A DNA stretch of 64,000 bases from Escherichia coli (GCF_003334765.1 NZ_QOWT01000006.1); one strand, 5' to 3'. Counted from the first letter of the stretch, positions 1 through 23,229 are shown. Numbers and translations: made by a program. The notes: generated by a model from the sequence alone, not told the origin.

Positions 1-890
1 TCTGCCATTTCCCGTTGCATCAGCGTCATTAATTCACCGTTGTTATCGGTGTAGATATGTGCTGGAAACAGCGTCGCACCAGCTTTATCACCACAAAAGC
101 TGACGTTCATAATCGACTGTTCGCGGATGTTGAGTGCAAATGACGTTTCCAGCCACAGAATGCCGCCGTTATGAAATTCAATGGTGCCAAACAGCGAATC
201 TTCGACGCTGTAAGTTGCCGGATCCCACTCACCAAATTGACCACAGCTCTTTTGCGTGCCGATCTTTTGAAAGCTATGCGCATTCACGCTTTTCACCGCC
301 GGAAAGCCCAGCACATACATCGCAGCATCCAGCATATGAATGCCGATGTCGATCAGCGGGCCACCACCCTGCAGTTCTTTATTGGTAAAGACACCCCAGC
401 CGGGAACGCCGCAGCGACGCAGGGCGCGGGCGGTGGTAACGTAAATCTCTCCCAAAACGCCGTTGGTCACCTGTTCACGCAGCTGTTGCGTATCGAGCGC
501 AAAACGATGGTGAAAGTCGTAGGCCAGCACCTTGCCCAGTTTGCGCGCGGTATCGCACATTTCCCGCGCCTGTTCTGGCGTCATGGCGGGCGGTTTTTCG
601 CACATCACATGGCAGCCCGCTTCCAGTGCCATCAGGGTATGTTCGTAATGAAAACGGTTAGGTGAGCAGACGCTAACCACATCAGGTTTCACCGCCAGCA
701 GCATGGCCTGCGGATCGTCCCACACGGATGCATTCCCGTATTTTTCTGCCAGCGCCTGCGCCTGGGAAAGGCGGCTGTCACAGACAGCCACCAGTTCCAG
801 ATCGTTGCGGGTGCAGTAGTACGAAGCATGAACCTTATCCGCCACCTGGCCTGCGCCTATTATCGCGACCCGCAGCGGAGAGCTTGTCAT
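1..890 (-). CDS. ycjS: Gfo/Idh/MocA-family NAD-dependent oxidoreductase, 5' part only (3' end lies beyond window start)
   Basis: Minus-strand ATG at 888-890 translates MTSSPLRVAIIGAGQVADKVH... (Rossmann GxGxxG); frame runs off position 1; sits upstream of ycjR as in the E. coli ycj cluster. Confidence 0.85.
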   Translation of the reverse strand, partial: MTSSPLRVAIIGAGQVADKVHASYYCTRNDLELVAVCDSRLSQAQALAEKYGNASVWDDPQAMLLAVKPDVVSVCSPNRFHYEHTLMALEAGCHVMCEKPPAMTPEQAREMCDTARKLGKVLAYDFHHRFALDTQQLREQVTNGVLGEIYVTTARALRRCGVPGWGVFTNKELQGGGPLIDIGIHMLDAAMYVLGFPAVKSVNAHSFQKIGTQKSCGQFGEWDPATYSVEDSLFGTIEFHNGGILWLETSFALNIREQSIMNVSFCGDKAGATLFPAHIYTDNNGELMTLMQREMA

Positions 891-911
891 TGCACTTTTC
901 ACAAAGACCTC

Positions 912-1700
912 TTAGCAGGTACGCAACCAGGCCAACGAATCACGGTACGCCTGGGCAGGATCTTCCGCCCGGATACGCCCTTCGTACACTACATAGCCCT
1001 GATAGTTATCCGCGCGCAGCTGTTCAAACAGCGCGTGGAAATCCAGGGTGCCGCTGCCCGGCTGGTAGCGATGGTTATCCGCAATATGCACATGACCGAG
1101 CAGGTCGCGGTTGTCATGCAGCGCCTGCGCCAGGTTATCTTCTTCGATATTCATGTGATAGAAATCGCCGATAATCTGTACATGTTTAAGATCGTTTTCG
1201 ACGATGTAACGGCGGGCATCGGCGAGGGTGTTGATCATATGATCCTGATAGCGGTTTAACGGTTCGAGATACACCACGGTTCCGGTACGCGCGGCGACCT
1301 GTTCCAGTACGCGCAGGGAATCACTCACCATTTTGCGGTCGCCGTCCAGGCTACGCGGCGAGGTCATCGGCGGTAAGCGGAAGGTAAACATGCCCCACGC
1401 AGCCGGAACGACGATGCCTTTACCGCCCACTTCTGCCAGCGCTTCGAGAATGCGCTCGATCTGCTTTAAGCCATTAAGACGACGCTCTTCGATAAAGTCG
1501 CCAATCCATCCGTCATAGCCACCGCAGGCGGTGGTCACCGGTAAACCGGTTTCTTTGATCGCCGCTTTGACTTCTTCGATGTTGTTAACCAGCAGTTTGC
1601 CGTCAATCTCAAAACCATCGAAGCCCATCTCTTTGATATAACGAAATTTCTCCAGAATGTTTTCCGGAAAGAACGCCTGATTCTGTGTGCCGATTTTCAT
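912..1700 (-). CDS. ycjR: sugar phosphate isomerase/epimerase (xylose-isomerase-like TIM barrel)
   Basis: ORF track 912..1709; start set at internal ATG (MKIGTQNQAFF...) giving 262 aa as recalled for YcjR; alternative start 1709. Confidence 0.9.
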   Translation of the reverse strand: MKIGTQNQAFFPENILEKFRYIKEMGFDGFEIDGKLLVNNIEEVKAAIKETGLPVTTACGGYDGWIGDFIEERRLNGLKQIERILEALAEVGGKGIVVPAAWGMFTFRLPPMTSPRSLDGDRKMVSDSLRVLEQVAARTGTVVYLEPLNRYQDHMINTLADARRYIVENDLKHVQIIGDFYHMNIEEDNLAQALHDNRDLLGHVHIADNHRYQPGSGTLDFHALFEQLRADNYQGYVVYEGRIRAEDPAQAYRDSLAWLRTC

Positions 1701-1718
1701 TTTTTTCATTCCTTTGAA

Positions 1719-2771
1719 TTAAAACGTAACGCCCATTTTGATGCTCTGTTCCGGATGCTGGTCGACATACTGCATATAGCTTTCCGGGCTATTGGCAAAG
1801 GTCACCACCGGGTCGATTAAATCTTCGCAATTGAGATAACCGTTCATCAGCAGTTCCCAACAGGTTTCTTCAATACGCTTGCGGCTCCAGCGCGGATAAT
1901 CCGGGTTCGGTTCGCTGCACGCGCGAGAGAAGACAATTTTGGCGTTATTGAAATGCGCTTCGCGTCCGAGGTTAAAACCTTCGGCAAACGGCTTGGCAAA
2001 CGCGACATAGGAGATGGTGCCGCCATAAGCCAGACCGCGGAGCGCCGATTGCAGCGCGTCGGCGTAGCCGCTGGTTTCGATAATCACATCGGCACCCTGC
2101 TTGCCGGTCAGCGTTTTGATCTCTTTACCTACATCAGTGCCGATGGGGTTAAGGCAGAAATCCGCGCCGTGGCGACGGGCAATATCACAGCGATGGGCGA
2201 TAGGATCGACGCCAATCACCACAGAAGCGCCAGCGCGTTTAGCCAGTTGGATGGCAATTTGACCGATTGCGCCAAGCCCTACCACCACCACAAAATCCCC
2301 TACGCGCACGTTGGCATCGCGCACGCCGCTCATGGCAAACTGCGCCGGGTCGTAGCAGACGGCGTTTTTCCAGGAGCTGCCTTGCGGCATTTTGCGCAGC
2401 TTGTAGTTATTCACTGCGTTAATGATGACCGTCTCGGAGAGCGGGCCGTAGCCGCATACGCTGTCGCCCACCGCGTAGTCGGTAACGTCGCTGCCGCACT
2501 CGATAATGTCGCCAACCACCATGTTGCCAAGCTGGAATTTGCCAAACTCAATGCCGCGCGGCGCATCTGCCGGACGCGGAGTGAACATCTGCCATTCGCC
2601 GTTAAAGTCTTCATCAATAAACGGGCTGGCGGCGCGGAAGTCGACCACTTCCGTTCCGTGTTTCGGTGCGCCGAAACGCACGCGGATCTTCACTTCATTA
2701 GCTAAAATCGCCCGATCTTCATACTCAACCAGCGCAGCAACACGCGGTGCTGTGGCTACTAACTTTTTCAT
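1719..2771 (-). CDS. ycjQ: Zn-dependent medium-chain dehydrogenase
   Basis: 350-aa ORF MKKLVATAPRVAALVEYEDRAILANEVK...; recognised as YcjQ. Confidence 0.92.
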   Translation of the reverse strand: MKKLVATAPRVAALVEYEDRAILANEVKIRVRFGAPKHGTEVVDFRAASPFIDEDFNGEWQMFTPRPADAPRGIEFGKFQLGNMVVGDIIECGSDVTDYAVGDSVCGYGPLSETVIINAVNNYKLRKMPQGSSWKNAVCYDPAQFAMSGVRDANVRVGDFVVVVGLGAIGQIAIQLAKRAGASVVIGVDPIAHRCDIARRHGADFCLNPIGTDVGKEIKTLTGKQGADVIIETSGYADALQSALRGLAYGGTISYVAFAKPFAEGFNLGREAHFNNAKIVFSRACSEPNPDYPRWSRKRIEETCWELLMNGYLNCEDLIDPVVTFANSPESYMQYVDQHPEQSIKMGVTF

Positions 2772-2801
2772 TTAAAACTCCTTGTAAAGAAACTGGCCGC
2801 T

Positions 2802-3644
2802 TTAGCCCTTCACGCCACCGGCGGTCAAACCACTCTTAATAAAACGTTCCGAAAGCGCATACATAATCACCACCGGCAATGCGGTCACCAGTGAGGCCGC
2901 CATCATCCGTCCCCAGATGTAATCTGGCGTACTGAACAGCGCGTTCAGGCCCACCGGTAAGGTGAAATTGCTGGCGCTGGAGAGGAAAATCGACGCAAAC
3001 AGATAGTCGTTCCACGCCACCATAAAGCAGTAGACGAACACGGATATCAGCCCGGACATCGCCAACGGCACGGTGATGCGGAAGATAATTTGCAGACGGT
3101 TGAGGCCATCCATCATCGCCGCTTCTTCGATCTCATCGGGGATGGTGTCGAAGTAGCTTTTCAGCATAAACACGGCGGTGGGCAGAGTTTGCGTCACCAT
3201 GGTGATGATCAGCGCCATCTCAGTGTCGTAAATGCCAAGCGCGGTGATGATTTTGAAAAGCGGCACCACCAGCAAAATGCCAGAGAACATATACACCGTG
3301 TAAAAGCTGGCGTTGATGGTCATCCGACCTTTAAAGCGCAGGCGGGAAAGCGCGTAAGCCCCAAGAATGCCGAGGAATACCGCCACCACGGATGAAACCA
3401 CAGACACCACCAGACTGTTACGGAAGTAGTCGACAAACGGGAAAATCATCGGGTTAAAAATGTCGACGTAATGCTCCAGCGTCCACTGCTGCGGCAGCAG
3501 CGTAGGATGCAGTGAGATCGCCTCTTTCGCGCCCTTGAACGAGGTCATCAGCATCACAAAAAATGGAAACAGCGTGATGATGAGAAACAGCGCCAGCTCG
3601 CAGTAAAAACCGATGCGACTGAGTGTGCGTTTATTTGTTGCCAT
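2802..3644 (-). CDS. ycjP: ABC sugar transporter permease (MalG-like)
   Basis: 280-aa hydrophobic ORF; 14-bp overlap with ycjO stop. Confidence 0.92.
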   Translation of the reverse strand: MATNKRTLSRIGFYCELALFLIITLFPFFVMLMTSFKGAKEAISLHPTLLPQQWTLEHYVDIFNPMIFPFVDYFRNSLVVSVVSSVVAVFLGILGAYALSRLRFKGRMTINASFYTVYMFSGILLVVPLFKIITALGIYDTEMALIITMVTQTLPTAVFMLKSYFDTIPDEIEEAAMMDGLNRLQIIFRITVPLAMSGLISVFVYCFMVAWNDYLFASIFLSSASNFTLPVGLNALFSTPDYIWGRMMAASLVTALPVVIMYALSERFIKSGLTAGGVKG

Positions 3645-4512
3645 TGAGGTTCACCCGTTTCCTGGTCAGCAGAATGACAGCGAAAATAATGATGAAGAGC
3701 ACCACCGAGATCGCCGCCGCTTTTCCTAAATCATTAAAGGCAAAGGCGGTTTTGTAGAGATATACACCGAGAATATCGACCTTGGTCGTCAGCAAATAAA
3801 CATCCGCGAACATGTAGAACATCCAGATGGTGCGCAGTGTCACCACCGTCGCCAGGACCGGCATAATTGCGGGCAGCGTGACGATACGAAACCGTTGCCA
3901 GGCATTAGCGCCATCCATCTCTGCCGCTTCGTACAGCGATTTGTCGATGGTCTGCAAAATCGCCAGAAACGAGATAAAGGCATACGGGAAGTAGCGCCAG
4001 ATGGCGAACAGCACCACCAGCACAAAGCTACTGCCCGGATTATCGAACCACAGCGGTGCCTGCTCATAGAGATGCAGAAGATCGACGCCGAGGTAGTTAA
4101 CAATGCCGTAGCCGTTGTTGAACATGTATTTCCAGGCGAACACCAGCGAAATGGACGGCGTTACGTAGGAGAGGATCACCAGCGAACGCGCGGTTTTGCG
4201 CAGGCGGAACTCGCGGTTGAAAAACATCGCCACCGCCAGCCCGAGCACGGTGCTGCCCGCCACCACCAGCGCGGTATACCAGACCGTCATCCACAGCGAA
4301 TGCCAGAAGCCGGGATCGGAGAGGATACGCACATAGTTGCTCACCCCAACAAACGTTGACTCGATGTTGGGATTGAGCGGCAGACGTAAAAAACTGATTT
4401 CGATATTCGACACCATCGGCCACGCCACCAGACCGCCCAGCAGTAATAAGCTGGGCGCGAGAAGCAGCAGCGCAAAGGGCATATCGGAACGACCTGAAAA
4501 AAGCCTGTTCAT
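3631..4512 (-). CDS. ycjO: ABC sugar transporter permease (MalF-like)
   Basis: 293-aa hydrophobic ORF. Confidence 0.92.
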   Translation of the reverse strand: MNRLFSGRSDMPFALLLLAPSLLLLGGLVAWPMVSNIEISFLRLPLNPNIESTFVGVSNYVRILSDPGFWHSLWMTVWYTALVVAGSTVLGLAVAMFFNREFRLRKTARSLVILSYVTPSISLVFAWKYMFNNGYGIVNYLGVDLLHLYEQAPLWFDNPGSSFVLVVLFAIWRYFPYAFISFLAILQTIDKSLYEAAEMDGANAWQRFRIVTLPAIMPVLATVVTLRTIWMFYMFADVYLLTTKVDILGVYLYKTAFAFNDLGKAAAISVVLFIIIFAVILLTRKRVNLNGNK

Positions 4513-4532
4513 TGCGGATTCCTGTCCTGGGT

Positions 4533-5825
4533 TTAGTGCTGTTCGATCAGTTCATCCAGTTTTTTCTGGCTCGCTTGCAGCGTAGTAGAGAGATCGGCTT
4601 TACCCACGGTGACGTTATGCACCATTGAACTCACCACGCCAGAACCCGTCACATCACCCATGCGGGTAAAGTTTTTATCCCCTACTGCGCCAAAAACCTG
4701 AATATTTGGCAGTTCACCGATTAGCTGATTCGGTAGTTCACCCAGCGCCTTAATAACGTCGTTGTCTTTCCAGGTGGCGGTAGTCACCACCGCTTTATTC
4801 ACCGGCAGCGCAGCACCTGGCGACATCATCACCCAGTCGGCAATGTTGTCTGCCTGCTCCATAAAGGTGACAAATTTTTCTGCTGCTTCCGTCTCTTCGG
4901 TCTTTTGCCCGGCGGTAATGGTCAGCGAGGTCAACATGCCGTAGACCGCAGAGTTTTTCTCGGTTGGCACCACGAAACCGACGTTTTTCGGGTCGCCTTC
5001 TTTAATCACAGCCGGAAGGATATAGGTGGAGTAAATCGCCATCGGCGCGGTGCCGTTCATAAAGGCGTCTTTCACTTCCATGATGTCGTTAGAACCCGGC
5101 ATAGTGTTGGCAGCAAGGTCGCGGTAATAGGTCAGTGCCTGCATCATCTCTGGTGTATCAAGGGTGATTTTGCCTTCGGCGTTAAAGACGTTAGCCTGGT
5201 TGGATAACGCAAACTGGGAGAAGGATTGTTCCGTCAACACGCTTTCTGCTGTAGGCAGCGCAATGCCGTATTTTTTATTCGCCGGGTCATTCAGTTTCTG
5301 TGCAACGTCCAGCAGCTGTTGCCAGTTTTTCGGCTCCTCAAGCCCCGCTTTTGCCAGCACATCTTTGCGATACCAGATACCGCCAATCCAGGCGCTGACA
5401 GGAACACCGGTCCATGCGCTACCATCTTCGGTACGCACAATACGCAGTACGCCATCGTAAAACGCGCCTTCACCAACGTTGCTGATGACTGTGGCAACCG
5501 CTTTGCGATCGATAAGCTGCTCTTTGTCCATCACTTTGGCGTAGTCATGGCTGGTTTCGATCACTTCCGGCAGCGAACCGCTACGTGAAAGAGTAATGAC
5601 TTTAGTGTTATAGGCATCTTCTTCCACGGGCACTTGCTTAACGGTGATGCCAGGGTTTTCTTTTTCAAAACGGGCAATCAATTTACTGATAACGGCCTGG
5701 CGCTCCTGCTCCACCGAAGAATGCATAAATTCGATGGATACATTCGTTTTATTTTCTTCTTTACAGCCTGAAATCAGGGCGCATGAAACCAGTGCTGATA
5801 ACAGCACGATTTTTGATTTAATCAT
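4533..5825 (-). CDS. ycjN: periplasmic sugar-binding lipoprotein of ABC transporter
   Basis: 430-aa ORF with lipoprotein-type signal (LSALVSCALISGC). Confidence 0.92.
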   Translation of the reverse strand: MIKSKIVLLSALVSCALISGCKEENKTNVSIEFMHSSVEQERQAVISKLIARFEKENPGITVKQVPVEEDAYNTKVITLSRSGSLPEVIETSHDYAKVMDKEQLIDRKAVATVISNVGEGAFYDGVLRIVRTEDGSAWTGVPVSAWIGGIWYRKDVLAKAGLEEPKNWQQLLDVAQKLNDPANKKYGIALPTAESVLTEQSFSQFALSNQANVFNAEGKITLDTPEMMQALTYYRDLAANTMPGSNDIMEVKDAFMNGTAPMAIYSTYILPAVIKEGDPKNVGFVVPTEKNSAVYGMLTSLTITAGQKTEETEAAEKFVTFMEQADNIADWVMMSPGAALPVNKAVVTTATWKDNDVIKALGELPNQLIGELPNIQVFGAVGDKNFTRMGDVTGSGVVSSMVHNVTVGKADLSTTLQASQKKLDELIEQH

Positions 5826-5838
5826 GAGATGTTCCTTT

Positions 5839-7518
5839 TTATTTAATCCACATAACCTGCCAGGGGCGCAGCGTTATTTCATTACCCAATATATCAACTT
5901 CACTAATCAGATCCCGACCATGCAGATTAGTAATATTTACATGCTGAATATTTTTACTGACATTAAACAATCCAGTCAGACAATTACCATCAGCGTTACT
6001 TCTTTGAATACGCATTACGGATGAATTAATCGTATCAATGGTAAAATTATTATCCGGATGAAACTCGTTATGGCTGCGACGAAGTGTAATTAAACGCGAC
6101 AACTCATGATATACCGCATGCCTTAATGTAGCTTCATCGTTCAGTTCTCGGGTTATCTCTTTACTGTGATATTTTTTACGGTTAATCGCACGGTTATATC
6201 CGATTTTTTCGACACCTGCGTAATCATTACGCGAGCCAAGAATACTTTGAATATATATCGCTGGCACACCGGGGAAACTTAACAAAATCGCATGGGCAAG
6301 GATAAACCTGGCGCAACGTTCTTCATCGCTACTCTCACGGCGGCTTAACGCATCCATATAGGTCACATTTATTTCATACGGACTGCGTGTACCGTCGGGA
6401 TTATTTTTCCAGTTTACTAATGCACCTTCCTGCTGTAACGCCTCGACCAGCTCTAATATTTCGCTTTCAGGCAACAAGCCCCGTAGCGGGTTTAGCCCGA
6501 TGCCATCGTGAGAGGCGAGGAAGTTAAACCAGGTGGTGTTGCTGGAAGGTAGTGTCAGGTTTTGCGCCCACGCACAAAGCGCCTCAACGTTCTGTTTTTG
6601 CACCGCATGCAGCACCAGTGGCGGCAGCGAGAACTGGTACACCATATGTGCTTCGTCATCGCCTGCGCCAAAGTAAGCAATGTTGTCTTTATGCGGAACA
6701 TTGGTCTCGGTAATGATCACTGTACCTGGCGCAACGTTATCAATAATCGACCGTAACAGTTTGATAATCAGATGTGTTTTTTCCAGATGGATGCAGCTTG
6801 TTCCCGGCTCTTTCCACATAAAGCCAACGGCATCCAGGCGGACATACTCAGCACCTTTCGCAAGGTAACAGAGTAAAACATCCACCATCGCCAGCAACAC
6901 TTCAGGGCTACGGTAATTCAGGTCAATTTGATCGTCACTAAAGGTGGTCCATAAATGGCGCGTTGAATGATCGCGCATCTGGAATGGCGTTAATAACGGT
7001 AACGCACGCGGGCGAGTGACGGCGCTGAGATCGGTTTGCGGGTCAACGGCAATAAAAAAATCTTCAAAACCTGGATGCTGTTGTAAATAGTTTTTAAACC
7101 ATTCACTTTTTGCCGACATATGGTTGCAGACAAAATCAAACATTAAATGACTGCATTCACCGAGTTGCTGAATATCCTGCCACTCCCCCGCTTCACTGGC
7201 GACCTGATGATAATCAATTACCGAAAAGCCATCATCAGATGACCATGGATAAAACGGCAACAAATGAACATGTGAAAAAATGCTTTGCAGCCATTGATGG
7301 TAAAACTGATTAAATGTGGGTAATGGTTTTAAATCATTGCTGTGAAATTGATCGGCATAGGTAATTAACACGACATCACTTTCATCCCAGTGTTTTTTAC
7401 GTCGCTGTGTAATTAATCGTTTCGCACTCTCAAGACGCGTTACAAGTTTCTGTAAATGAGTTGCGGTAAATGTTCCACCGTAGATTTCGTCCAGGTAATC
7501 CGTAATTTTCTGTTTCAT
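5839..7518 (-). CDS. ycjM: GH13 sucrose-phosphorylase-like glucosylglycerate phosphorylase
   Basis: ORF track 5839..7545; start set at internal ATG (MKQKITDYLDEIYGG) giving 559 aa as recalled for YcjM. Confidence 0.9.
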   Translation of the reverse strand: MKQKITDYLDEIYGGTFTATHLQKLVTRLESAKRLITQRRKKHWDESDVVLITYADQFHSNDLKPLPTFNQFYHQWLQSIFSHVHLLPFYPWSSDDGFSVIDYHQVASEAGEWQDIQQLGECSHLMFDFVCNHMSAKSEWFKNYLQQHPGFEDFFIAVDPQTDLSAVTRPRALPLLTPFQMRDHSTRHLWTTFSDDQIDLNYRSPEVLLAMVDVLLCYLAKGAEYVRLDAVGFMWKEPGTSCIHLEKTHLIIKLLRSIIDNVAPGTVIITETNVPHKDNIAYFGAGDDEAHMVYQFSLPPLVLHAVQKQNVEALCAWAQNLTLPSSNTTWFNFLASHDGIGLNPLRGLLPESEILELVEALQQEGALVNWKNNPDGTRSPYEINVTYMDALSRRESSDEERCARFILAHAILLSFPGVPAIYIQSILGSRNDYAGVEKIGYNRAINRKKYHSKEITRELNDEATLRHAVYHELSRLITLRRSHNEFHPDNNFTIDTINSSVMRIQRSNADGNCLTGLFNVSKNIQHVNITNLHGRDLISEVDILGNEITLRPWQVMWIK

Positions 7519-7688
7519 GTTGCCTTTCCGTGGTAGCGGTCCCATGAAACGAGAGACTACTCCGCAGAAAATAAACTGTCAATTGAGCACAAGGGTTTTA
7601 GTCACGCAGGAAATCATTTTTTACCAGGGAAAAAGCGTATTTGTGAGCTGACGCAAATAATCTATGGGGATGTAAATAAGGTGTGACA

Positions 7689-7716
7689 GAAAAAAAAACG
7701 GCGCATAAGCGCCGCT
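7689..7716 (-). terminator. rho-independent terminator downstream of pspE
   Basis: Hairpin cggcgc-ataa-gcgccg with a 9-nt A run on the plus strand (U run on minus-strand transcript). Confidence 0.6.
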
Positions 7717-7730
7717 CATGGTGAATTCTT

Positions 7731-8045
7731 TTAACCTTTGACCTTCGGCATTGCGATGTCTTTCAGGCCACCGGCGTTCTCAACGTGGGTATATCCCATC
7801 TCGCTAAGGATCTCTTTTGCTTGCCCTGACTGGCGTCCGGCATTGCAATACACTTTCACGGTGTCGTTTTTATCCGGAACGGCGGTGGCAATGCGCTCTT
7901 TCACTTCCTTCAGGGGAATATTGATGGCCCCCTGAACGTGCTCTTGCTGATACTGCTCTGGAACACGAACATCGATCCAGTGTTCAGCGGCGAAAACGGG
8001 CAGTGAAAACACCAGTGCCAGAGCAAGTAAGCCTTTTTTAAACAT
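7731..8045 (-). CDS. pspE: periplasmic rhodanese (thiosulfate sulfurtransferase)
   Basis: 104-aa ORF with signal peptide and rhodanese active-site region (VYCNAGRQSGQ). Confidence 0.93.
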   Translation of the reverse strand: MFKKGLLALALVFSLPVFAAEHWIDVRVPEQYQQEHVQGAINIPLKEVKERIATAVPDKNDTVKVYCNAGRQSGQAKEILSEMGYTHVENAGGLKDIAMPKVKG

Positions 8046-8119
8046 GTAAGCGTCCTTCTATGGATGAAAATTGCCATCCATTATACGCCTGAGATTTAAC
8101 AATTTTTGCGAAACTCCCC

Positions 8120-8341
8120 TCACCTTTTATAACGCTGTGCCAGTTTATTAGCAGCCCGACTTAACAGCGGTTCCAGCGCCACAGCCAGCAACATTTTCAG
8201 CGGTCGGCGAGCAACTGATTTTATCGCCCAGCCCGCCACACCCGCCGGGCCATAGCGCAGTGCGGTAAGAAGTACCAGCTTGCCTGCTAATTTGAAACCA
8301 GGCTTTACCTTTTGCCCGGCCTGTTGCCAGCGAGTATTCAT
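8120..8341 (-). CDS. pspD: phage shock protein D
   Basis: ORF track 8120..8353; internal ATG start [17 protein letters not shown]... (73 aa). Confidence 0.9.
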
Positions 8342-8349
8342 AACTTTCC

Positions 8350-8709
8350 TCACAGTTGACGGAAACGGCTACGTAACGTGAAAGTATCGGAAGTGACATA
8401 ACGTTCCATCTCGCGTAAACGCGTTTCACTTGCCGCCAGTTCACGGTCGACTTCATCCAGCAATTCGCTGCTGGAAGGTAGCTGCTCACCAAAGGCCATG
8501 TTGTCCGGCATTGGATCAAGCGCAAATGACAAAATGATGTAAGCAACCAGGGTAAACAGCGCCAGACCGAAGAAAATCGACAGCACCACCAGGATACGCA
8601 CCAGTTTTACCGGTACATCAAAATAGTTGGCAATCCCGGCGCAGACGCCGCGGACCATGCCCTGCTGTGGAATACGCCATAATTTTTTATTGAGATTAAT
8701 GCCCGCCAT
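8350..8709 (-). CDS. pspC: phage shock protein C
   Basis: 119-aa [33 protein letters not shown]... Confidence 0.93.
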
Positions 8710-8933
8710 TAGCGATCCCTCCAGTTCGGATGTTCTGCATCAAGAATAGATTCCAGCGCCTGAATACGTTCGCGCATCCGTTTTGCTTCATCAGCCAGTT
8801 GCGCTAATCGCTGCTGCTCACTTTGCGACAATTCACTGCGACCAGAACGATTGCTGTAATGCAGCCATAACCAGATCGGTAAAACAAACAGCACAAAAAT
8901 GGTTAACGGAATAGCCAGAAATAGCGCGCTCAT
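8709..8933 (-). CDS. pspB: phage shock protein B
   Basis: 74-aa ORF MSALFLAIPLTIFVLFVLPIWLWLHY...; 1-nt overlap with pspC start. Confidence 0.93.
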   Translation of the reverse strand: MSALFLAIPLTIFVLFVLPIWLWLHYSNRSGRSELSQSEQQRLAQLADEAKRMRERIQALESILDAEHPNWRDR

Positions 8934-8986
8934 AAGTACTCCTTAGACGATGAGCGGCGGCGCGTTCGGACGCCGCCTGGATGTTA

Positions 8987-9727
<741 letters not shown>

Positions 9728-9821
9728 TTATCTTTTTGATTTATAAAGATCTGATTGAAGAATCAACAGCAACATGCCAGGATGAGTTAGCGAATTACAC
9801 TAACAAGTGGCGAATTTCATC

Positions 9822-10799
9822 ATGGCAGAATACAAAGATAATTTACTTGGTGAGGCGAACAGCTTTCTCGAAGTGCTGGAACAGGTTTCGCATCTCGCAC
9901 CGCTGGACAAACCGGTGCTCATCATCGGCGAACGCGGCACCGGTAAAGAGCTGATTGCCAGCCGCCTGCATTATCTCTCCTCCCGTTGGCAAGGGCCGTT
10001 TATTTCCCTTAACTGCGCGGCGTTAAATGAAAATCTGCTGGATTCCGAACTGTTTGGTCACGAAGCGGGGGCGTTTACCGGTGCGCAAAAACGTCATCCA
10101 GGGAGATTTGAACGTGCCGACGGCGGTACGCTATTTCTTGATGAACTCGCTACGGCACCGATGATGGTGCAGGAGAAATTATTGCGCGTGATTGAGTACG
10201 GTGAACTGGAGCGCGTTGGCGGCAGCCAGCCATTGCAGGTGAATGTGCGGTTGGTATGCGCGACGAATGCCGATCTCCCGGCGATGGTCAATGAAGGCAC
10301 TTTTCGCGCTGACCTGCTCGACCGACTGGCTTTTGATGTTGTACAACTGCCACCACTGCGCGAGCGCGAAAGCGACATAATGTTGATGGCAGAATACTTT
10401 GCCATCCAGATGTGTCGGGAAATCAAGCTGCCTCTGTTCCCGGGGTTTACGGAGCGCGCCAGAGAAACATTGCTGAATTATCGTTGGCCGGGAAATATTC
10501 GTGAATTGAAAAACGTGGTGGAACGTTCAGTGTATCGCCACGGCACCAGCGATTATCCGCTTGATGACATCATTATTGATCCCTTTAAACGGCGTCCGCC
10601 TGAAGACGCTATCGCCGTTTCAGAAACCACCTCGCTTCCAACACTGCCGCTGGATTTACGTGAGTTTCAGATGCAGCAGGAAAAAGAGTTGCTGCAACTC
10701 AGTTTGCAACAAGGGAAATATAACCAGAAGCGCGCGGCTGAATTACTGGGGTTAACTTATCATCAGTTCCGCGCGTTGTTGAAAAAGCACCAGATTTAG
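9822..10799 (+). CDS. pspF: sigma-54-dependent transcriptional activator of the psp operon
   Basis: ORF track 9807..10799; internal ATG start MAEYKDNLLGEANSFLEVL...; AAA+ sigma-54 activator motifs (GERGTGKE, GAFTGA). Confidence 0.93.
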   Translation: MAEYKDNLLGEANSFLEVLEQVSHLAPLDKPVLIIGERGTGKELIASRLHYLSSRWQGPFISLNCAALNENLLDSELFGHEAGAFTGAQKRHPGRFERADGGTLFLDELATAPMMVQEKLLRVIEYGELERVGGSQPLQVNVRLVCATNADLPAMVNEGTFRADLLDRLAFDVVQLPPLRERESDIMLMAEYFAIQMCREIKLPLFPGFTERARETLLNYRWPGNIRELKNVVERSVYRHGTSDYPLDDIIIDPFKRRPPEDAIAVSETTSLPTLPLDLREFQMQQEKELLQLSLQQGKYNQKRAAELLGLTYHQFRALLKKHQI

Positions 10800-10918: not shown

Positions 10919-12184
10919 TTAATCGCTCAGCGCATCCTGCAAAATTTTCATTGCCGCATCGAATTGCGCATCCGGGATGGTCAGCGGATACAGGAAGCGA
11001 ATCACGTTGCCGTATGCGCCACAGGTCAGCAGGAGCAGCCCCTGCGCCAGCGCGCGTTGCTGGATTTTCTGTGCAATCGCCGCTGACGGCTCGCCCGTTT
11101 GCGGATCGTTAAACTCTACCGCAATCATCGACCCCAGGCCGCGTACCGCAGCAATGGCCGGAACGCTTTCTTTGGCATCAATCAACGTGTTTTTGAGACG
11201 CTGGCCCAGTTGATTCGCGCGTTCGCAGAGTGATTCTTTGTCGATAATGTTGAGCACCGCGTGCGCGGCAGCCACCGCCAGCGGGTTACCGGCGTAGGTG
11301 CCGCCAAGCCCGCCCGGCGCGGGTGCGTCCATAATATTCGCGTTACCGACCACGCCCGAAAGCGGCATCCCGCCCGCGAGGCTTTTCGCCATCGTCATTA
11401 AATCCGGCTTATCGGAGTAATGATCCATGGCAAACAGCTTACCGGTACGCGCAAAGCCGCTTTGCACTTCATCAGCAATCATCACAATACCGTGCTCGTC
11501 GCACAGGCGGCGAATAGCGGCAACCAGCTCTTTTGGCGCAACGTTGAAACCGCCCTCGCCCTGCACCGGTTCGAAAATAATCGCCGCCACCTGCTTCGCT
11601 TCGATGTCTGATTTAAACAAGCGTTCGATGGCGTCGAGGGAGTCCTGTGTTGAAATGCCGTGTAAATCTGACGGATAAGGTACGTGATACACCGAACCAG
11701 GGAACGGGCCGAAGCCGATTTTGTACGGCGCAACTTTTCCGGTCAGCGCCATGGTCATATACGTACGACCGTGAAAGCCGCCGCTAAACGCAATCACGCC
11801 AGGGCGTCCGGTATGGGCGCGAGCAATTTTCACCGCGTTTTCCACCGCTTCCGCACCGGTGGTGAAGAACGCGGTTTTGGCCTGCCCGCTCACCGGGGCA
11901 AGGGCGTTGATTTTCTCCGCCAGGGTGACGTAGCTTTCATACGGCACAATCTGATACGCGGTGTGGGTAAACTGTTGCAGTTGCTGCTCCACCGCCGCGA
12001 CCAGATCAGGGTGGCGATGTCCGGTATTCAGCACCGCAATGCCTGCGGCGAAATCGATGTACTCGTTGCCCTCAACATCCTTCAGCGTGGCGTTTTCAGC
12101 CGACTGGGCGAAGAAGTTACACATCACGCCAACCCCGCGCGGAGTGGCAGAAAGACGACTCTGATGGAATTCATTGTTGCTCAT
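10919..12184 (-). CDS. puuE: 4-aminobutyrate aminotransferase (PLP-dependent)
   Basis: 421-aa ORF MSNNEFHQSRLSATPRGVGVMCNFFAQSAENATLKDVEGNEYIDF... Confidence 0.93.
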   Translation of the reverse strand: MSNNEFHQSRLSATPRGVGVMCNFFAQSAENATLKDVEGNEYIDFAAGIAVLNTGHRHPDLVAAVEQQLQQFTHTAYQIVPYESYVTLAEKINALAPVSGQAKTAFFTTGAEAVENAVKIARAHTGRPGVIAFSGGFHGRTYMTMALTGKVAPYKIGFGPFPGSVYHVPYPSDLHGISTQDSLDAIERLFKSDIEAKQVAAIIFEPVQGEGGFNVAPKELVAAIRRLCDEHGIVMIADEVQSGFARTGKLFAMDHYSDKPDLMTMAKSLAGGMPLSGVVGNANIMDAPAPGGLGGTYAGNPLAVAAAHAVLNIIDKESLCERANQLGQRLKNTLIDAKESVPAIAAVRGLGSMIAVEFNDPQTGEPSAAIAQKIQQRALAQGLLLLTCGAYGNVIRFLYPLTIPDAQFDAAMKILQDALSD

Positions 12185-12221
12185 GTTTCACACCTTTTGA
12201 CTCTTCACGGTTAATCGGAAA

Positions 12222-13502
12222 TTAAACGCCCAGACGATCGCGCAGGCTGTAATACGCCGCGCCCATCGCGGTAAACGGCACACGCAGCGTGCGCCCGCCG
12301 GGGAACGGGTAATGCGGCAGATTGGCGAAGGCATCGAAACGTTCGGCGTCGCCGCGCAGCAGTTCGGCAATCAAACGTCCGGCTAGATGAGTACAGGTCA
12401 CGCCGTGGCCGCTGTAGCCCTGCATGTAATAGATGTTGGTATCGAGGCGACCAAACTGCGGCATACGCGACAGGGTCAGCAGGAAGTTGCCCGTCCAGCG
12501 GTAATCAATTTTCACGCCCTTCAGCTGCGGGAAGGTTTTCAGCAGTTTCGGCACCACAAGGCGCTCAACGTCATCCGGGTCGCGCGCGCCGTAGACCACG
12601 CCGCCGCCGTACAGCAGGCGGTTGTCGGCGGTAAGACGGTAGTAATCAAGCAGATAGTTACAGTCTTCCACACAGTAGTTTTTCGGGATCAGCGAACGGG
12701 CTAAATCTTCCGACAGCCGTTCGGTGGTGATCACCTGCGTGCCGCACGGCATGCTGCGTTTCGCCAGTTCCGGCTCTACTTTATCGCCCAGATACGCATT
12801 CCCGGCGACAATCACATACTTCGCCGTCACCTGACCTTTGGCAGTTCGCACAACGGCTGGCGTGGTGTGCTGGATCTGCGTCACGGCAGAAAGTTCATAC
12901 ACGCGCCCGCCGTTGAGGCGGATGGCGTCCGCTTCGCCAATGGCAAGGTTTAGCGGATGAATATGCCCACCGCTGTGATCCAGCAGCGCACCGGTATAGC
13001 GATCGCTGGCTACTTCACGGCGAATGGCGTTGGCGTCCAGCAATTCCAGCTGTTTATTGCCGTAGCGTTCCCAGTTCTCTTTCTGCTCTTCAAGTGTGGC
13101 GAGCTGTTTATCATTCATCGCCACAAACAGGCCGCCGGGGCGGTAGTCGCAGTCAATCTGATAACGTTTGATACGTTCGCGGATGATCTCACCACCTTCG
13201 AACATCATGCTGCCGAGCATACGGGCGGTGTCCATGCCGTAGCTTTTTTCGATCACGTCGATGTCGCGGCTGTAGGAGTTCACAAGCTGTCCGCCATTGC
13301 GCCCGCTTGCGCCAAAGCCGATGCGTGAGGCTTCGAGAACCACTACGTCAAAGCCCGCTTCCGCCAGATGCAGCGCGGAGGAGAGCCCGGTATAGCCGCC
13401 GCCAACCACGCAAACGTCGCAGGTGATTGACTCATTCAGCGTGTCGAATGGTGCATATTTATTCGCACTGGCGGCGTAGTAACTGCTGGTATGTTCGGTC
13501 AT
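12222..13502 (-). CDS. puuB: gamma-glutamylputrescine oxidase (FAD)
   Basis: 426-aa ORF with N-terminal FAD motif (VCVVGGGYTGLSSA). Confidence 0.93.
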   Translation of the reverse strand: MTEHTSSYYAASANKYAPFDTLNESITCDVCVVGGGYTGLSSALHLAEAGFDVVVLEASRIGFGASGRNGGQLVNSYSRDIDVIEKSYGMDTARMLGSMMFEGGEIIRERIKRYQIDCDYRPGGLFVAMNDKQLATLEEQKENWERYGNKQLELLDANAIRREVASDRYTGALLDHSGGHIHPLNLAIGEADAIRLNGGRVYELSAVTQIQHTTPAVVRTAKGQVTAKYVIVAGNAYLGDKVEPELAKRSMPCGTQVITTERLSEDLARSLIPKNYCVEDCNYLLDYYRLTADNRLLYGGGVVYGARDPDDVERLVVPKLLKTFPQLKGVKIDYRWTGNFLLTLSRMPQFGRLDTNIYYMQGYSGHGVTCTHLAGRLIAELLRGDAERFDAFANLPHYPFPGGRTLRVPFTAMGAAYYSLRDRLGV

Positions 13503-22267: not shown

Positions 22268-23229
22268 TTATCTTCACCTTACGCCGCATTTTGTTATTGA
22301 TTGTCACCTTGTTCCTGCTGACCTTCGTTGGCTTCAGCTTGAGCTATTTCACCCCTCATGCGCCGTTACAAGGCGCGTCACTGTGGAATGCCTGGGTGTT
22401 CTGGTTTAACGGCCTGATCCACTGGGATTTTGGTGTTTCCAGCATTAACGGTCAACCGATTGCCGAACAGTTAAAAGAGGTCTTCCCGGCGACGATGGAA
22501 CTGTGCATCCTCGCCTTCGGTTTTGCGCTGATTGTTGGCATCCCCGTGGGGATGATTGCCGGGATTACGCGCCATAAGTGGCAGGATAACTTGATCAACG
22601 CCATCGCCTTACTGGGCTTTTCAATCCCGGTGTTCTGGCTGGCGCTTCTGTTGACGCTGTTTTGTTCACTCACGCTAGGTTGGTTGCCCGTTTCAGGGCG
22701 TTTCGATCTGCTCTACGAAGTGAAACCGATTACCGGTTTTGCGTTGATTGATGCCTGGCTTTCGGACTCACCATGGCGGGATGAAATGATCATGAGCGCA
22801 ATCCGCCATATGATATTGCCCGTGATCACCCTGTCGGTTGCGCCAACAACTGAAGTGATCCGCCTGATGCGTATCAGCACTATCGAAGTGTATGACCAGA
22901 ACTATGTAAAAGCGGCGGCGACCCGCGGTTTGTCGCGCTTTACTATTTTGCGTCGCCACGTTCTGCATAACGCGTTACCGCCGGTTATTCCTCGCCTGGG
23001 CTTACAGTTTTCCACCATGCTGACGCTGGCGATGATCACCGAAATGGTTTTTAGCTGGCCGGGTTTAGGGCGCTGGTTAATTAACGCCATCCGCCAGCAG
23101 GATTACGCAGCCATTTCCGCCGGAGTGATGGTGTGTGGCTCACTGGTCATTATTGTTAACGTGATTTCTGATATTTTGGGTGCCATGGCTAACCCTCTGA
23201 AACATAAGGAATGGTATGCCTTACGATAG
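22264..23229 (+). CDS. sapB: ABC transporter permease
   Basis: 321-aa membrane ORF; 4-bp overlap with sapA. Confidence 0.95.

Follow-up and report, generated by a model that had tools for sequence, protein, structure and literature searches.

What compound does the ycj operon of Escherichia coli take up and degrade, and do its transporter, enzymes and regulator serve one substrate or several? The question is raised by the first 7,518 nucleotides (nt) of a 64,000-nt stretch of E. coli DNA (GCF_003334765.1, NZ_QOWT01000006.1), which carry ycjM to ycjS; the whole stretch is referred to here as the window, and positions are counted from its first letter. Judged by identity to annotated genomes, positions 1-7518 are almost certainly the promoter-proximal two thirds of the known ycjMNOPQRSTUV-ompG operon of the E. 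coli chromosome. The locus, its repressor, several of its enzyme activities and two crystal structures have already been published. The overall best explanation is very probably that of the known ycj operon, regulated by YcjW and modelled as a system for the uptake and breakdown of gulosides and glucosides.

Identity of the locus

Positions 1-9000 of the window were compared by megablast with 5,426 complete E. coli genomes. A match was obtained in 5,423 of these, and E. coli FORC 064 (NZ_CP022664.1 2697012-2706011), together with many other strains, was 100% identical over the full length. The RefSeq annotation of the FORC 064 record was transferred to the window (locus coordinate minus 8,000) and the genes were re-translated (Table 1). 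All seven frames are open, with proper start and stop codons, and a mechanical list of open reading frames (ORFs) agrees. A reading of this DNA from its sequence alone (the sequence-only reading) had proposed seven co-directional genes, ycjM to ycjS, an identification that low identity to YcjM-S on alignment would have spoken against; the alignment with K-12 MG1655 gave 0-2 residue differences per protein (99.6-100% identity), and the gene assignment is borne out by the transferred annotation. Two points go beyond that reading: the genes are read from the reverse strand, and the window edge truncates ycjS. Along the direction of transcription, from ycjM to ycjS, the gene-to-gene distances are 13, 20, -14, 30, 18 and 9 nt.

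In K-12 the ycj operon and YcjW regulon (b1309-b1320) occupy the same locus in the same gene order, between pspE and ycjX. YcjO, YcjQ and YcjR are identical to their MG1655 counterparts, YcjN, YcjP and YcjS are one residue off and YcjM is two residues off; across approximately 10 kb from ycjM to ycjT, only six nucleotides differ. The 212-nt intergenic region between pspE and ycjM, promoter and operator included, is identical in K-12.

Beyond the window start, FORC 064 carries, in order, ycjT, ycjU (pgmB), an intact gene for a 360-residue ATP-binding cassette (ABC) ATPase, ompG and, divergently oriented after ompG, ycjW. The ATP-binding subunit and the regulator had been placed beyond the window start by the sequence-only reading, and in this 100%-identical genome ycjV and the LacI-type ycjW are indeed found there. 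K-12 differs from FORC 064 in ycjV, where a 1-nt deletion at nt 954 has produced the ycjV/ymjB pseudogene pair in place of the intact 360-residue reading frame. The genome from which the window derives presumably has the intact allele, given its identity to FORC 064. A 71-mer spanning the K-12 frameshift site recurs without a mismatch in 4379 of 4996 E. coli genomes, and K-12 derivatives belong to the 98.6% class; because of this count, the intact sequence is taken to be the norm at the frameshift site and the K-12 allele a minority variant.

Operators and the control region

The control of the operon was examined in the segment between pspE and ycjM. The symmetric skeleton TGGNANCGNTNCCA of the operator in front of ycjM (O1) occurs exactly twice in the 25-kb FORC 064 locus, where 0.02 matches are expected by chance, and the two sites are identical to one another. 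The second copy lies 17 nt upstream of the start of ycjU (pgmB), inside the end of ycjT; within the 64-kb window, the operator in the ycjM leader is the only match. The two positions, before ycjM and before ycjU, agree with the two peaks obtained for YcjW by chromatin immunoprecipitation sequencing and with the probe used for the electrophoretic mobility shift assay in PMC6599011, the agreement being positional. In that study, YcjW binding was shown by the mobility shift assay, deletion of ycjW caused strong derepression of ycjM, ycjT, ycjU and ompG, and YcjW was released from DNA by 0.5-1 mM kojibiose and not by sucrose or trehalose (PMC6599011). Regulation of the operon by YcjW at these two operators is near certain.

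A candidate sigma-70 promoter precedes O1, its -35 (TTGACA) and -10 (TAGTCT) elements being separated by a 17-nt spacer. In an alignment covering 12 genera, TTGACA and the AGTAG core of the -10 element are invariant and the surrounding bases vary, the pattern of a phylogenetic footprint. A simple consensus promoter scan returned fewer sigma-70-like sites than shuffled sequences did and missed this candidate, the -10 element of which matches the consensus at 3/6 positions. Transcription is predicted from the promoter sequence to start at about 7547-7545. The operator begins approximately 10 nt downstream of the -10 element and occupies nearly all of the leader of about 28 nt, which fits repression through blocking of the polymerase. 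A search of the intergenic region for inverted repeats returned only the 8-nt pair GTTTCATG/CATGAAAC and missed the imperfect palindrome of the operator.

A strong intrinsic terminator after pspE lies between the two transcription units and sets the psp transcript apart from the ycj promoter. Luhachack et al. found pspE mRNA to be raised in the ycjW deletion, yet saw no YcjW site near pspE (PMC6599011). The only operator match in the window is on the far side of that terminator from pspE, so that the ycjM promoter, once derepressed, cannot drive transcription of pspE.

Two alternative start sites were noted. An in-frame ATG at 7543-7545, 27 nt upstream of the annotated ycjM start, overlaps the YcjW operator and gives the longest ORF (568 residues); the annotated start has the better ribosome-binding site (GGAAAGG) and agrees with the K-12 start. 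The longest ycjR ORF (265 residues) likewise begins slightly upstream of the annotated start.

Conservation across genera and phyla

Related loci were collected by a YcjQ scan of one genome per species (GTDB), which gave 80 loci onto which the E. coli proteins were mapped by tblastn. The full set M-N-O-P-Q-R-S-T-U-V-ompG with a divergent ycjW is found between the psp genes and ycjX in many Enterobacterales, including Escherichia, Citrobacter, Enterobacter, Lelliottia, Leclercia, Trabulsiella, Atlantibacter, Superficieibacter and others, and also Salmonella enterica subsp. arizonae and diarizonae. Rahnella, Budvicia, Limnobaculum and Buttiauxella carry the complete set in other genomic contexts. 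In the Firmicutes Listeria, Gottfriedia, Bacillus, Peribacillus and Neobacillus, the same order from M to U is kept, ycjW is divergent on the other side, and ycjV and ompG are absent; relative to E. coli, YcjQ is 73-79% identical, the permeases 68-80% and the remaining proteins 48-61%. Firmicutes had already been noted in the YcjN similarity cluster with this neighbourhood (PMC11543891). Altogether, ycjW is divergent from the operon in at least 60 related loci.

The operator travels with the genes. In 69/71 loci it stands before the ycjM homologue, at a distance of no more than 200 nt (53/53 from Enterobacterales and 16/18 from Firmicutes, often duplicated in the latter), and in 35/49 loci from Enterobacterales it stands no more than 60 nt before ycjU. 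Of 125 instances of the motif in 1.56 Mb, 113 sit before ycjM or ycjU, the shuffled control giving 0, and the consensus nears the perfect palindrome TGGGAGCGCTCCCA. Two or three operator copies are often present upstream of the ycjM homologue in Firmicutes. Several Listeria loci have, at the ycjM/ycjN junction, the near-match TGGGAGCGCTCCAA, with one mismatch to the pattern; in two, the exact site TGGGAGCGATTCCA stands there.

This distribution points to a transfer of regulator, operator and pathway between phyla as one unit, and, among the new arguments for enzymes devoted to a single substrate, the conservation of the complete gene set across phyla is the strongest.

Proposed pathway and the observations that weigh against it

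The activities published for the gene products can be arranged in a single route. YcjQ oxidises D-gulosides and YcjS reduces 3-keto-D-glucosides, both as NAD-dependent dehydrogenases acting at C3, and YcjR is the C4 epimerase that connects one 3-keto sugar with the other; kojibiose phosphorylase and beta-phosphoglucomutase activities belong to YcjT and YcjU, respectively (PMC11543891, PMC11116085). YcjM phosphorolyses 2-O-alpha-D-glucosyl-D-glycerate (PMC6599011, PMC11543891). According to the proposed model, an oligosaccharide or glycoside would enter through OmpG, be captured by YcjN and be imported by YcjO/YcjP, powered by YcjV, the two permeases being made in a fixed ratio by way of a conserved 14-nt overlap of their genes. 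In the cytoplasm, YcjQ, YcjR and YcjS would convert a gulo-configured sugar unit to a gluco-configured one, and the resulting alpha-1,2-glucoside would be split by phosphorolysis, by YcjM or YcjT, to glucose-1-phosphate and either glycerate or glucose, which would pass into glycolysis. Whether the sequence from guloside to glucoside to phosphorolysis is a real physiological flux is a separate matter, on which we judge the chances to be about evenly divided.

Several observations weigh against this explanation. We know of no natural guloside substrate. None of the seven proteins attains the curated cut-off of an NCBIfam equivalog model; their matches are at family level throughout, and for this reason the substrate specificities rest on published biochemistry and not on computation. 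Two Paenibacillus loci have W-Q-R-S-T and no M-N-O-P nearby. The GC content at third codon positions (GC3) is that of a mosaic, with 0.43 for ycjM, 0.43 for ycjW, 0.57 for ycjN, 0.72 for ycjO/P and 0.62-0.64 for ycjQRS, which could reflect the joining of modules of different origin and suggests that ycjM and ycjW, at the two ends of the island, have separate histories. The sequence-only reading had held the substrate to be only partly defined, and this still applies: a thermal-shift screen of YcjN published in 2024, which included kojibiose, glucose and maltose, found no stabilising ligand (PMC11543891), and kojibiose supports little growth, K-12 failing to grow on it as sole carbon source and the authors doubting that it is the natural inducer (PMC6599011).

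Some of the same observations would be expected if the operon were a patchwork of independent modules that share one promoter and handle several unrelated substrates, ycjM being used for glucosylglycerate, ycjNOPV for uptake, ycjQRS for gulosides and ycjTU for kojibiose. The sharp GC3 differences, from ycjM/ycjW to ycjO/P, and the Paenibacillus loci fit such an assembly, the additional operator in front of ycjU may mark a part of the operon under its own control, and the two phosphorylases have been reported to act on different substrates (PMC6599011, PMC11543891). However, Enterobacterales share gene content and order from M to U, the divergent W and the operator with Listeria and Bacillus-like Firmicutes, the proteins being 50-80% identical, and modules without a functional relationship would hardly be expected to be inherited together in this way. 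We regard a patchwork as unlikely.

The enzymes

The family assignments made by the sequence-only reading (GH13 phosphorylase, binding protein, two permeases, dehydrogenase, isomerase/epimerase and oxidoreductase) were upheld by profile and structure matches throughout. YcjM belongs to the GH13 sucrose-phosphorylase family, with NCBIfam matches to sucrose phosphorylase and TreS; its catalytic motifs RLD229, ITE271 and SHD338 (Asp229, Glu271 and His337-Asp338) align with sucrose phosphorylase structures, and its closest solved structures are sucrose, sucrose-6F-phosphate and glucosylglycerol phosphorylases. YcjM shares a homologous catalytic domain with GH13 subfamily 18 (PDB 1R7A, 7QQJ and the glucosylglycerol phosphorylase 7XDQ; E 1e-44 to 3e-57), the nucleophile Asp, the acid/base Glu and the His-Asp motifs being aligned; however, YcjM has about 45 extra N-terminal residues and its reported acceptor is D-glycerate. 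Against the sucrose phosphorylase equivalog TIGR03852 it scores 222.7 bits, below the cut-off of 334.4 bits, which is consistent with a different acceptor specificity, and it was therefore filed in the family and not as a sucrose phosphorylase. The product name in the K-12 RefSeq record is glucosylglycerate phosphorylase.

YcjQ is a dehydrogenase of the MDR superfamily, named D-guloside 3-dehydrogenase in the K-12 RefSeq record, with NCBIfam matches to threonine, inosose and other MDR dehydrogenases. Its Pfam match to the Rossmann cofactor domain ADH_zinc_N (PF00107) is clear (E 3.5e-26, residues 168-289) and that to the catalytic GroES-like ADH_N domain marginal (E 0.009, 29/104 model positions); MDR structures are matched only via the Rossmann domain. 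Opposite the zinc-ligand motif G-H-E of threonine dehydrogenase, YcjQ has G-N-M in a weak, 0.9-bit alignment. The RefSeq label 'zinc-dependent alcohol dehydrogenase' may accordingly be a family name rather than a property of YcjQ.

Residues 1-262 of YcjR match PDB 6WN6, '3-keto-D-glucoside 4-epimerase', with E 1e-179, the fold being a xylose-isomerase-like TIM barrel, and the NCBIfam family matches are to psicose and 5-keto-gluconate epimerases. The ketose 3-epimerases for D-tagatose and D-psicose have this fold and metal-dependent enolisation chemistry in common with YcjR, but the sequence relation is only of the order of E 1e-22, and the site of action given for YcjR in the PDB title and the K-12 annotation is C4 of 3-keto-pyranosides. 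YcjS is an NAD(H) oxidoreductase of the Gfo/Idh/MocA family (IIGAGQVA at residues 14-21; IolG, E 5e-30) with the RefSeq name D-glucoside 3-dehydrogenase; its other NCBIfam family matches are UDP-GlcNAc 3-dehydrogenase, levoglucosan dehydrogenase and Bacteroides glycoside 3-dehydrogenases. Its closest solved relatives are DgpA (PDB 7XR9) and DgpA1 (PDB 9M3D), with E 7e-63 and 40% identity over 273 residues.

The DgpA-type oxidoreductases of gut bacteria oxidise or reduce C3 of a glucosyl unit, as YcjS does (PMC11239390), and this kinship raises the question of whether YcjQRS carry out an oxidative, 3-keto-glycoside deglycosylation of plant or dietary glycosides, the conversion of gulosides to glucosides in vitro being a side activity. 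DgpA and DgpA1 are 3''-oxidases of the puerarin C-glycoside pathway, the matches of YcjS to the Bacteroides glycoside or disaccharide 3-dehydrogenases and to levoglucosan dehydrogenase, weak as they are, lie in the same direction, and the TIM-barrel fold of YcjR is found in enzymes whose chemistry takes place beside a 3-keto group. The partners are different, however: DgpA works with a DgpB/C lyase that cleaves the C-glycoside, whereas the ycj partners of YcjS are the epimerase YcjR and YcjQ, a dehydrogenase from a second superfamily. Apart from its own structure, the PDB entries matched by YcjR at E<=1e-5 are ketose 3-epimerases rather than lyases of the DgpB/C type, the conserved cassette is without a lyase or hydratase gene, and two phosphorylases with a beta-phosphoglucomutase point to disaccharide-like products. 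Deglycosylation of this type is thus improbable as the role of the three enzymes.

The transporter

Two permeases with EAA loops, an exported binding protein and a cognate ATPase gene place YcjNOP and YcjV, on their sequences, among the type I ABC importers of the CUT1 class. YcjO is a UgpA/MalF-like permease with the EAA loop YEAAEMDGANAWQ, and YcjP a MalG/GlcU/UgpE-like permease with the EAA loop EEAAMMDGLNRLQ and a MalG match (E 4.5e-42) under the equivalog cut-off. YcjN matches its own solved structure, PDB 8VQK, over its full length (E 5e-283), the next structure match being 7V09, an uncharacterised homologue from Enterobacter cloacae, and its NCBIfam family match is UgpB. It is a lipoprotein substrate-binding protein (lipobox ISGC, Cys21). 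According to published work, YcjN is acylated at Cys21, has a cluster D-I binding-protein fold that is maltose-binding-protein-like, and has no known ligand (PMC11543891).

The general layout of an outer-membrane channel, a binding protein, two MalF/MalG-like permeases and a MalK-like ATPase is common to MalEFGK2 with LamB, to Ugp and to the ycj system, all of the CUT1 class. The ycj system differs in that YcjN is a lipoprotein, not soluble in the periplasm, and shows no response to maltose (PMC11543891), that the NCBIfam scores of the ycj proteins fall far under the MalF, MalG and Ugp equivalog cut-offs, and that catabolic enzymes are encoded within the transporter operon. It has been suggested that YcjNOPV is mainly a maltose importer: a 2025 paper reports maltose as the main cargo of the complex and ethidium bromide as a further one (PMC13053599), and both the MalF/MalG-like permeases and the fold of YcjN (PMC11543891) would suit this role. 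However, purified YcjN was not stabilised by maltose in an assay in which maltose-binding protein shifted by 8.6 C (PMC11543891), the hosts of the 2025 study were K-12 and BL21, and the word 'pseudogene' does not occur in its text, which leaves the state of ycjV in K-12 unmentioned (PMC13053599). E. coli already has MalEFGK2, and no other product of the operon acts on alpha-1,4 glucosides, so that a mainly maltose-importing role is very improbable.

The mature YcjN protein (5' end of the gene at 5760-5825, minus strand) would start with Cys21-Lys-Glu, with Lys and no Asp at position +2. Under the Lol sorting rule, the absence of Asp at +2 predicts transfer to the outer membrane. YcjN is accordingly predicted to be sorted to the outer membrane, which would be odd for an ABC binding protein that docks on an inner-membrane permease. 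Its sorting is not mentioned in the 2024 YcjN paper (PMC11543891).

The genes of the two permeases overlap. The overlaps of 14 nt at ycjP/ycjO and at sapB/sapC elsewhere in the window, both noted by the sequence-only reading, are exact (Table 1). Within ycjO, a Shine-Dalgarno sequence, GGTGA, precedes the ATG of ycjP by 6 nt. The -14 junction is kept in 48 of 51 related loci of other genera, the scorable loci being those in which the residue aligned to Met1 of E. coli YcjP is a start codon, and on this count the overlap is a conserved feature and no accident of annotation. The tight translational coupling of ycjO and ycjP that the sequence-only reading proposed is a reasonable inference from this arrangement. 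Overlaps as such are not unusual here, at least ten others on the same strand (1-11 nt) being annotated in the neighbourhood; the pairs are pspB/C, ycjS/T, ycjT/U, sapA/B, sapC/D, ymjE/puuP, yciK/cobO, yciO/rnm, trpE/D and yciH/pyrF.

Selection and loss of the island

The ratio of non-synonymous to synonymous substitution rates (dN/dS) was calculated between this lineage and the 95.4%-identical E. coli strain Ecol_732. It ranges from 0.00 (ycjO) to 0.10 (ycjM and ycjS) over all twelve ycj genes, similar to the values for pspA and pspF, and on this basis the ycj genes are maintained under purifying selection. All six nucleotide differences from K-12 are non-synonymous (YcjM L439I and P505Q, YcjN T238A, YcjP G16E, YcjS I299M, YcjT R241W). 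Relaxed selection was considered as a reading of these six changes and rejected, given p of about 0.18 and the dN/dS range.

At least 80% of positions 1-7730 is present in 4,963 of the 5,426 complete genomes. No match to this interval was found in 386/5,426 (approximately 7%), nearly all of which keep the psp genes; the ycj island is dispensable. In the island-less genomes sampled, homology breaks off within the pspE terminator, at window position 7712; only 118 nt separate pspE from ycjX there, and this short spacer is unrelated to either flank of the island. This clean pspE-ycjX junction is the commonest island-less form. Other genomes show varied deletions between ycjW and ycjM that are associated with the insertion sequence IS1 and have taken ycjM-ompG. 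An IS1 deletion such as that of NCTC9966 was ruled out as the source of most island-less genomes, at most 14 genomes having that kind of junction.

That the operon is a cryptic remnant decaying in E. coli, as the K-12 ycjV frameshift, the six non-synonymous differences, the absence of the island from about 7% of complete genomes and the several independent IS1-associated deletions might suggest, is scarcely credible, since dN/dS between divergent E. coli lineages largely refutes decay, most genomes hold the island and the intact ycjV sequence at the K-12 frameshift site (counts given above), and about 75% of random changes are non-synonymous, so that six out of six is not significant.

Other features of the window

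The coordinates of the features are collected in Table 1. An Rfam scan of positions 1-10000 at a permissive E-value gave a single match, a chance snoRNA with E 0.47, and no known RNA element. The four largest ORFs on the plus strand, antisense to the ycj genes (148-250 residues), were dismissed as shadow ORFs; they have no NCBIfam match and are unannotated in the records examined. Six matches to positions 1-7730 lie on records labelled as plasmids in complete E. coli assemblies. In Ecol_732 the whole puu (putrescine utilisation) cluster, which in the window lies between pspF and ymjA, is absent, and the pspF-ymjA interval holds only a small pseudogene fragment.

Table 1. Positions of genes and sequence elements at the ycj locus, given in window coordinates except where another record is named
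Feature	Position	Strand	Remarks
ycjS	<1-902	-	GTG start at 902; codons 1-300 of 351 inside the window, last 154 nt beyond the window start
ycjR	912-1700	-	RefSeq transfer and re-translation
ycjQ	1719-2771	-	RefSeq transfer and re-translation
ycjP	2802-3644	-	RefSeq transfer and re-translation
ycjO stop/ycjP start overlap	3631-3644	-	14 nt, ATGGCAACAAATAA
ycjO	3631-4512	-	RefSeq transfer and re-translation
ycjN	4533-5825	-	RefSeq transfer and re-translation
ycjM	5839-7518	-	RefSeq transfer and re-translation; start codon at 7518
ycjM Shine-Dalgarno	7522-7528	-	GGAAAGG, read from the sequence
YcjW operator O1	7531-7544	-	TGGGACCGCTACCA; 14-bp LacI-type imperfect palindrome, central CG, 13 nt before the ycjM ATG
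Candidate sigma-70 promoter	7554-7582	-	-35 at 7582-7577, -10 at 7559-7554
Intrinsic terminator after pspE	7696-7717	-	9-bp stem, 6 GC pairs, T-run
pspE	7731-8045		upstream of ycjM; rest of the psp operon beyond
sapB/sapC overlap	23216-23229		14 nt, ATGCCTTACGATAG
ycjV	FORC 064 locus 3831-4913; K-12 locus 11821-12902		outside the window, downstream of ycjU
ycjW	FORC 064 locus 1772-2770		outside the window, divergent after ompG

Implications

The annotation of this segment is correct and brings nothing new; what value remains lies in this being among the better-characterised 'orphan' catabolic operons of E. coli. A further step, which we put forward tentatively and hold to be possible but doubtful, is that Firmicutes and Enterobacterales have exchanged the whole ycj cassette as one unit, from repressor and operator to binding protein, permeases, the two phosphorylases, the three-enzyme C3/C4 inversion module and beta-phosphoglucomutase, and that it is dedicated to one natural glycoside that needs all of its enzymes. 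If so, a candidate substrate would be, for example, a glycosyl-glucose or glycosyl-glycerate with an alpha-1,2 linkage and a gulo or galacto configuration, which would have been missed partly owing to the frameshifted ATPase of K-12, and natural strains with an intact ycjV would show a growth phenotype. With its frameshifted transporter ATPase, K-12 may be a poor model in which to find the substrate of the operon. The conservation of cassette and operator as a unit in two phyla, the strong purifying selection on every gene and the prevalence among natural E. coli of the intact sequence at the K-12 ycjV frameshift site bring the question of the substrate slightly closer to an answer. Taken together, they argue for a search in strains other than K-12 and for a substrate the use of which probably depends on the full set of enzymes.

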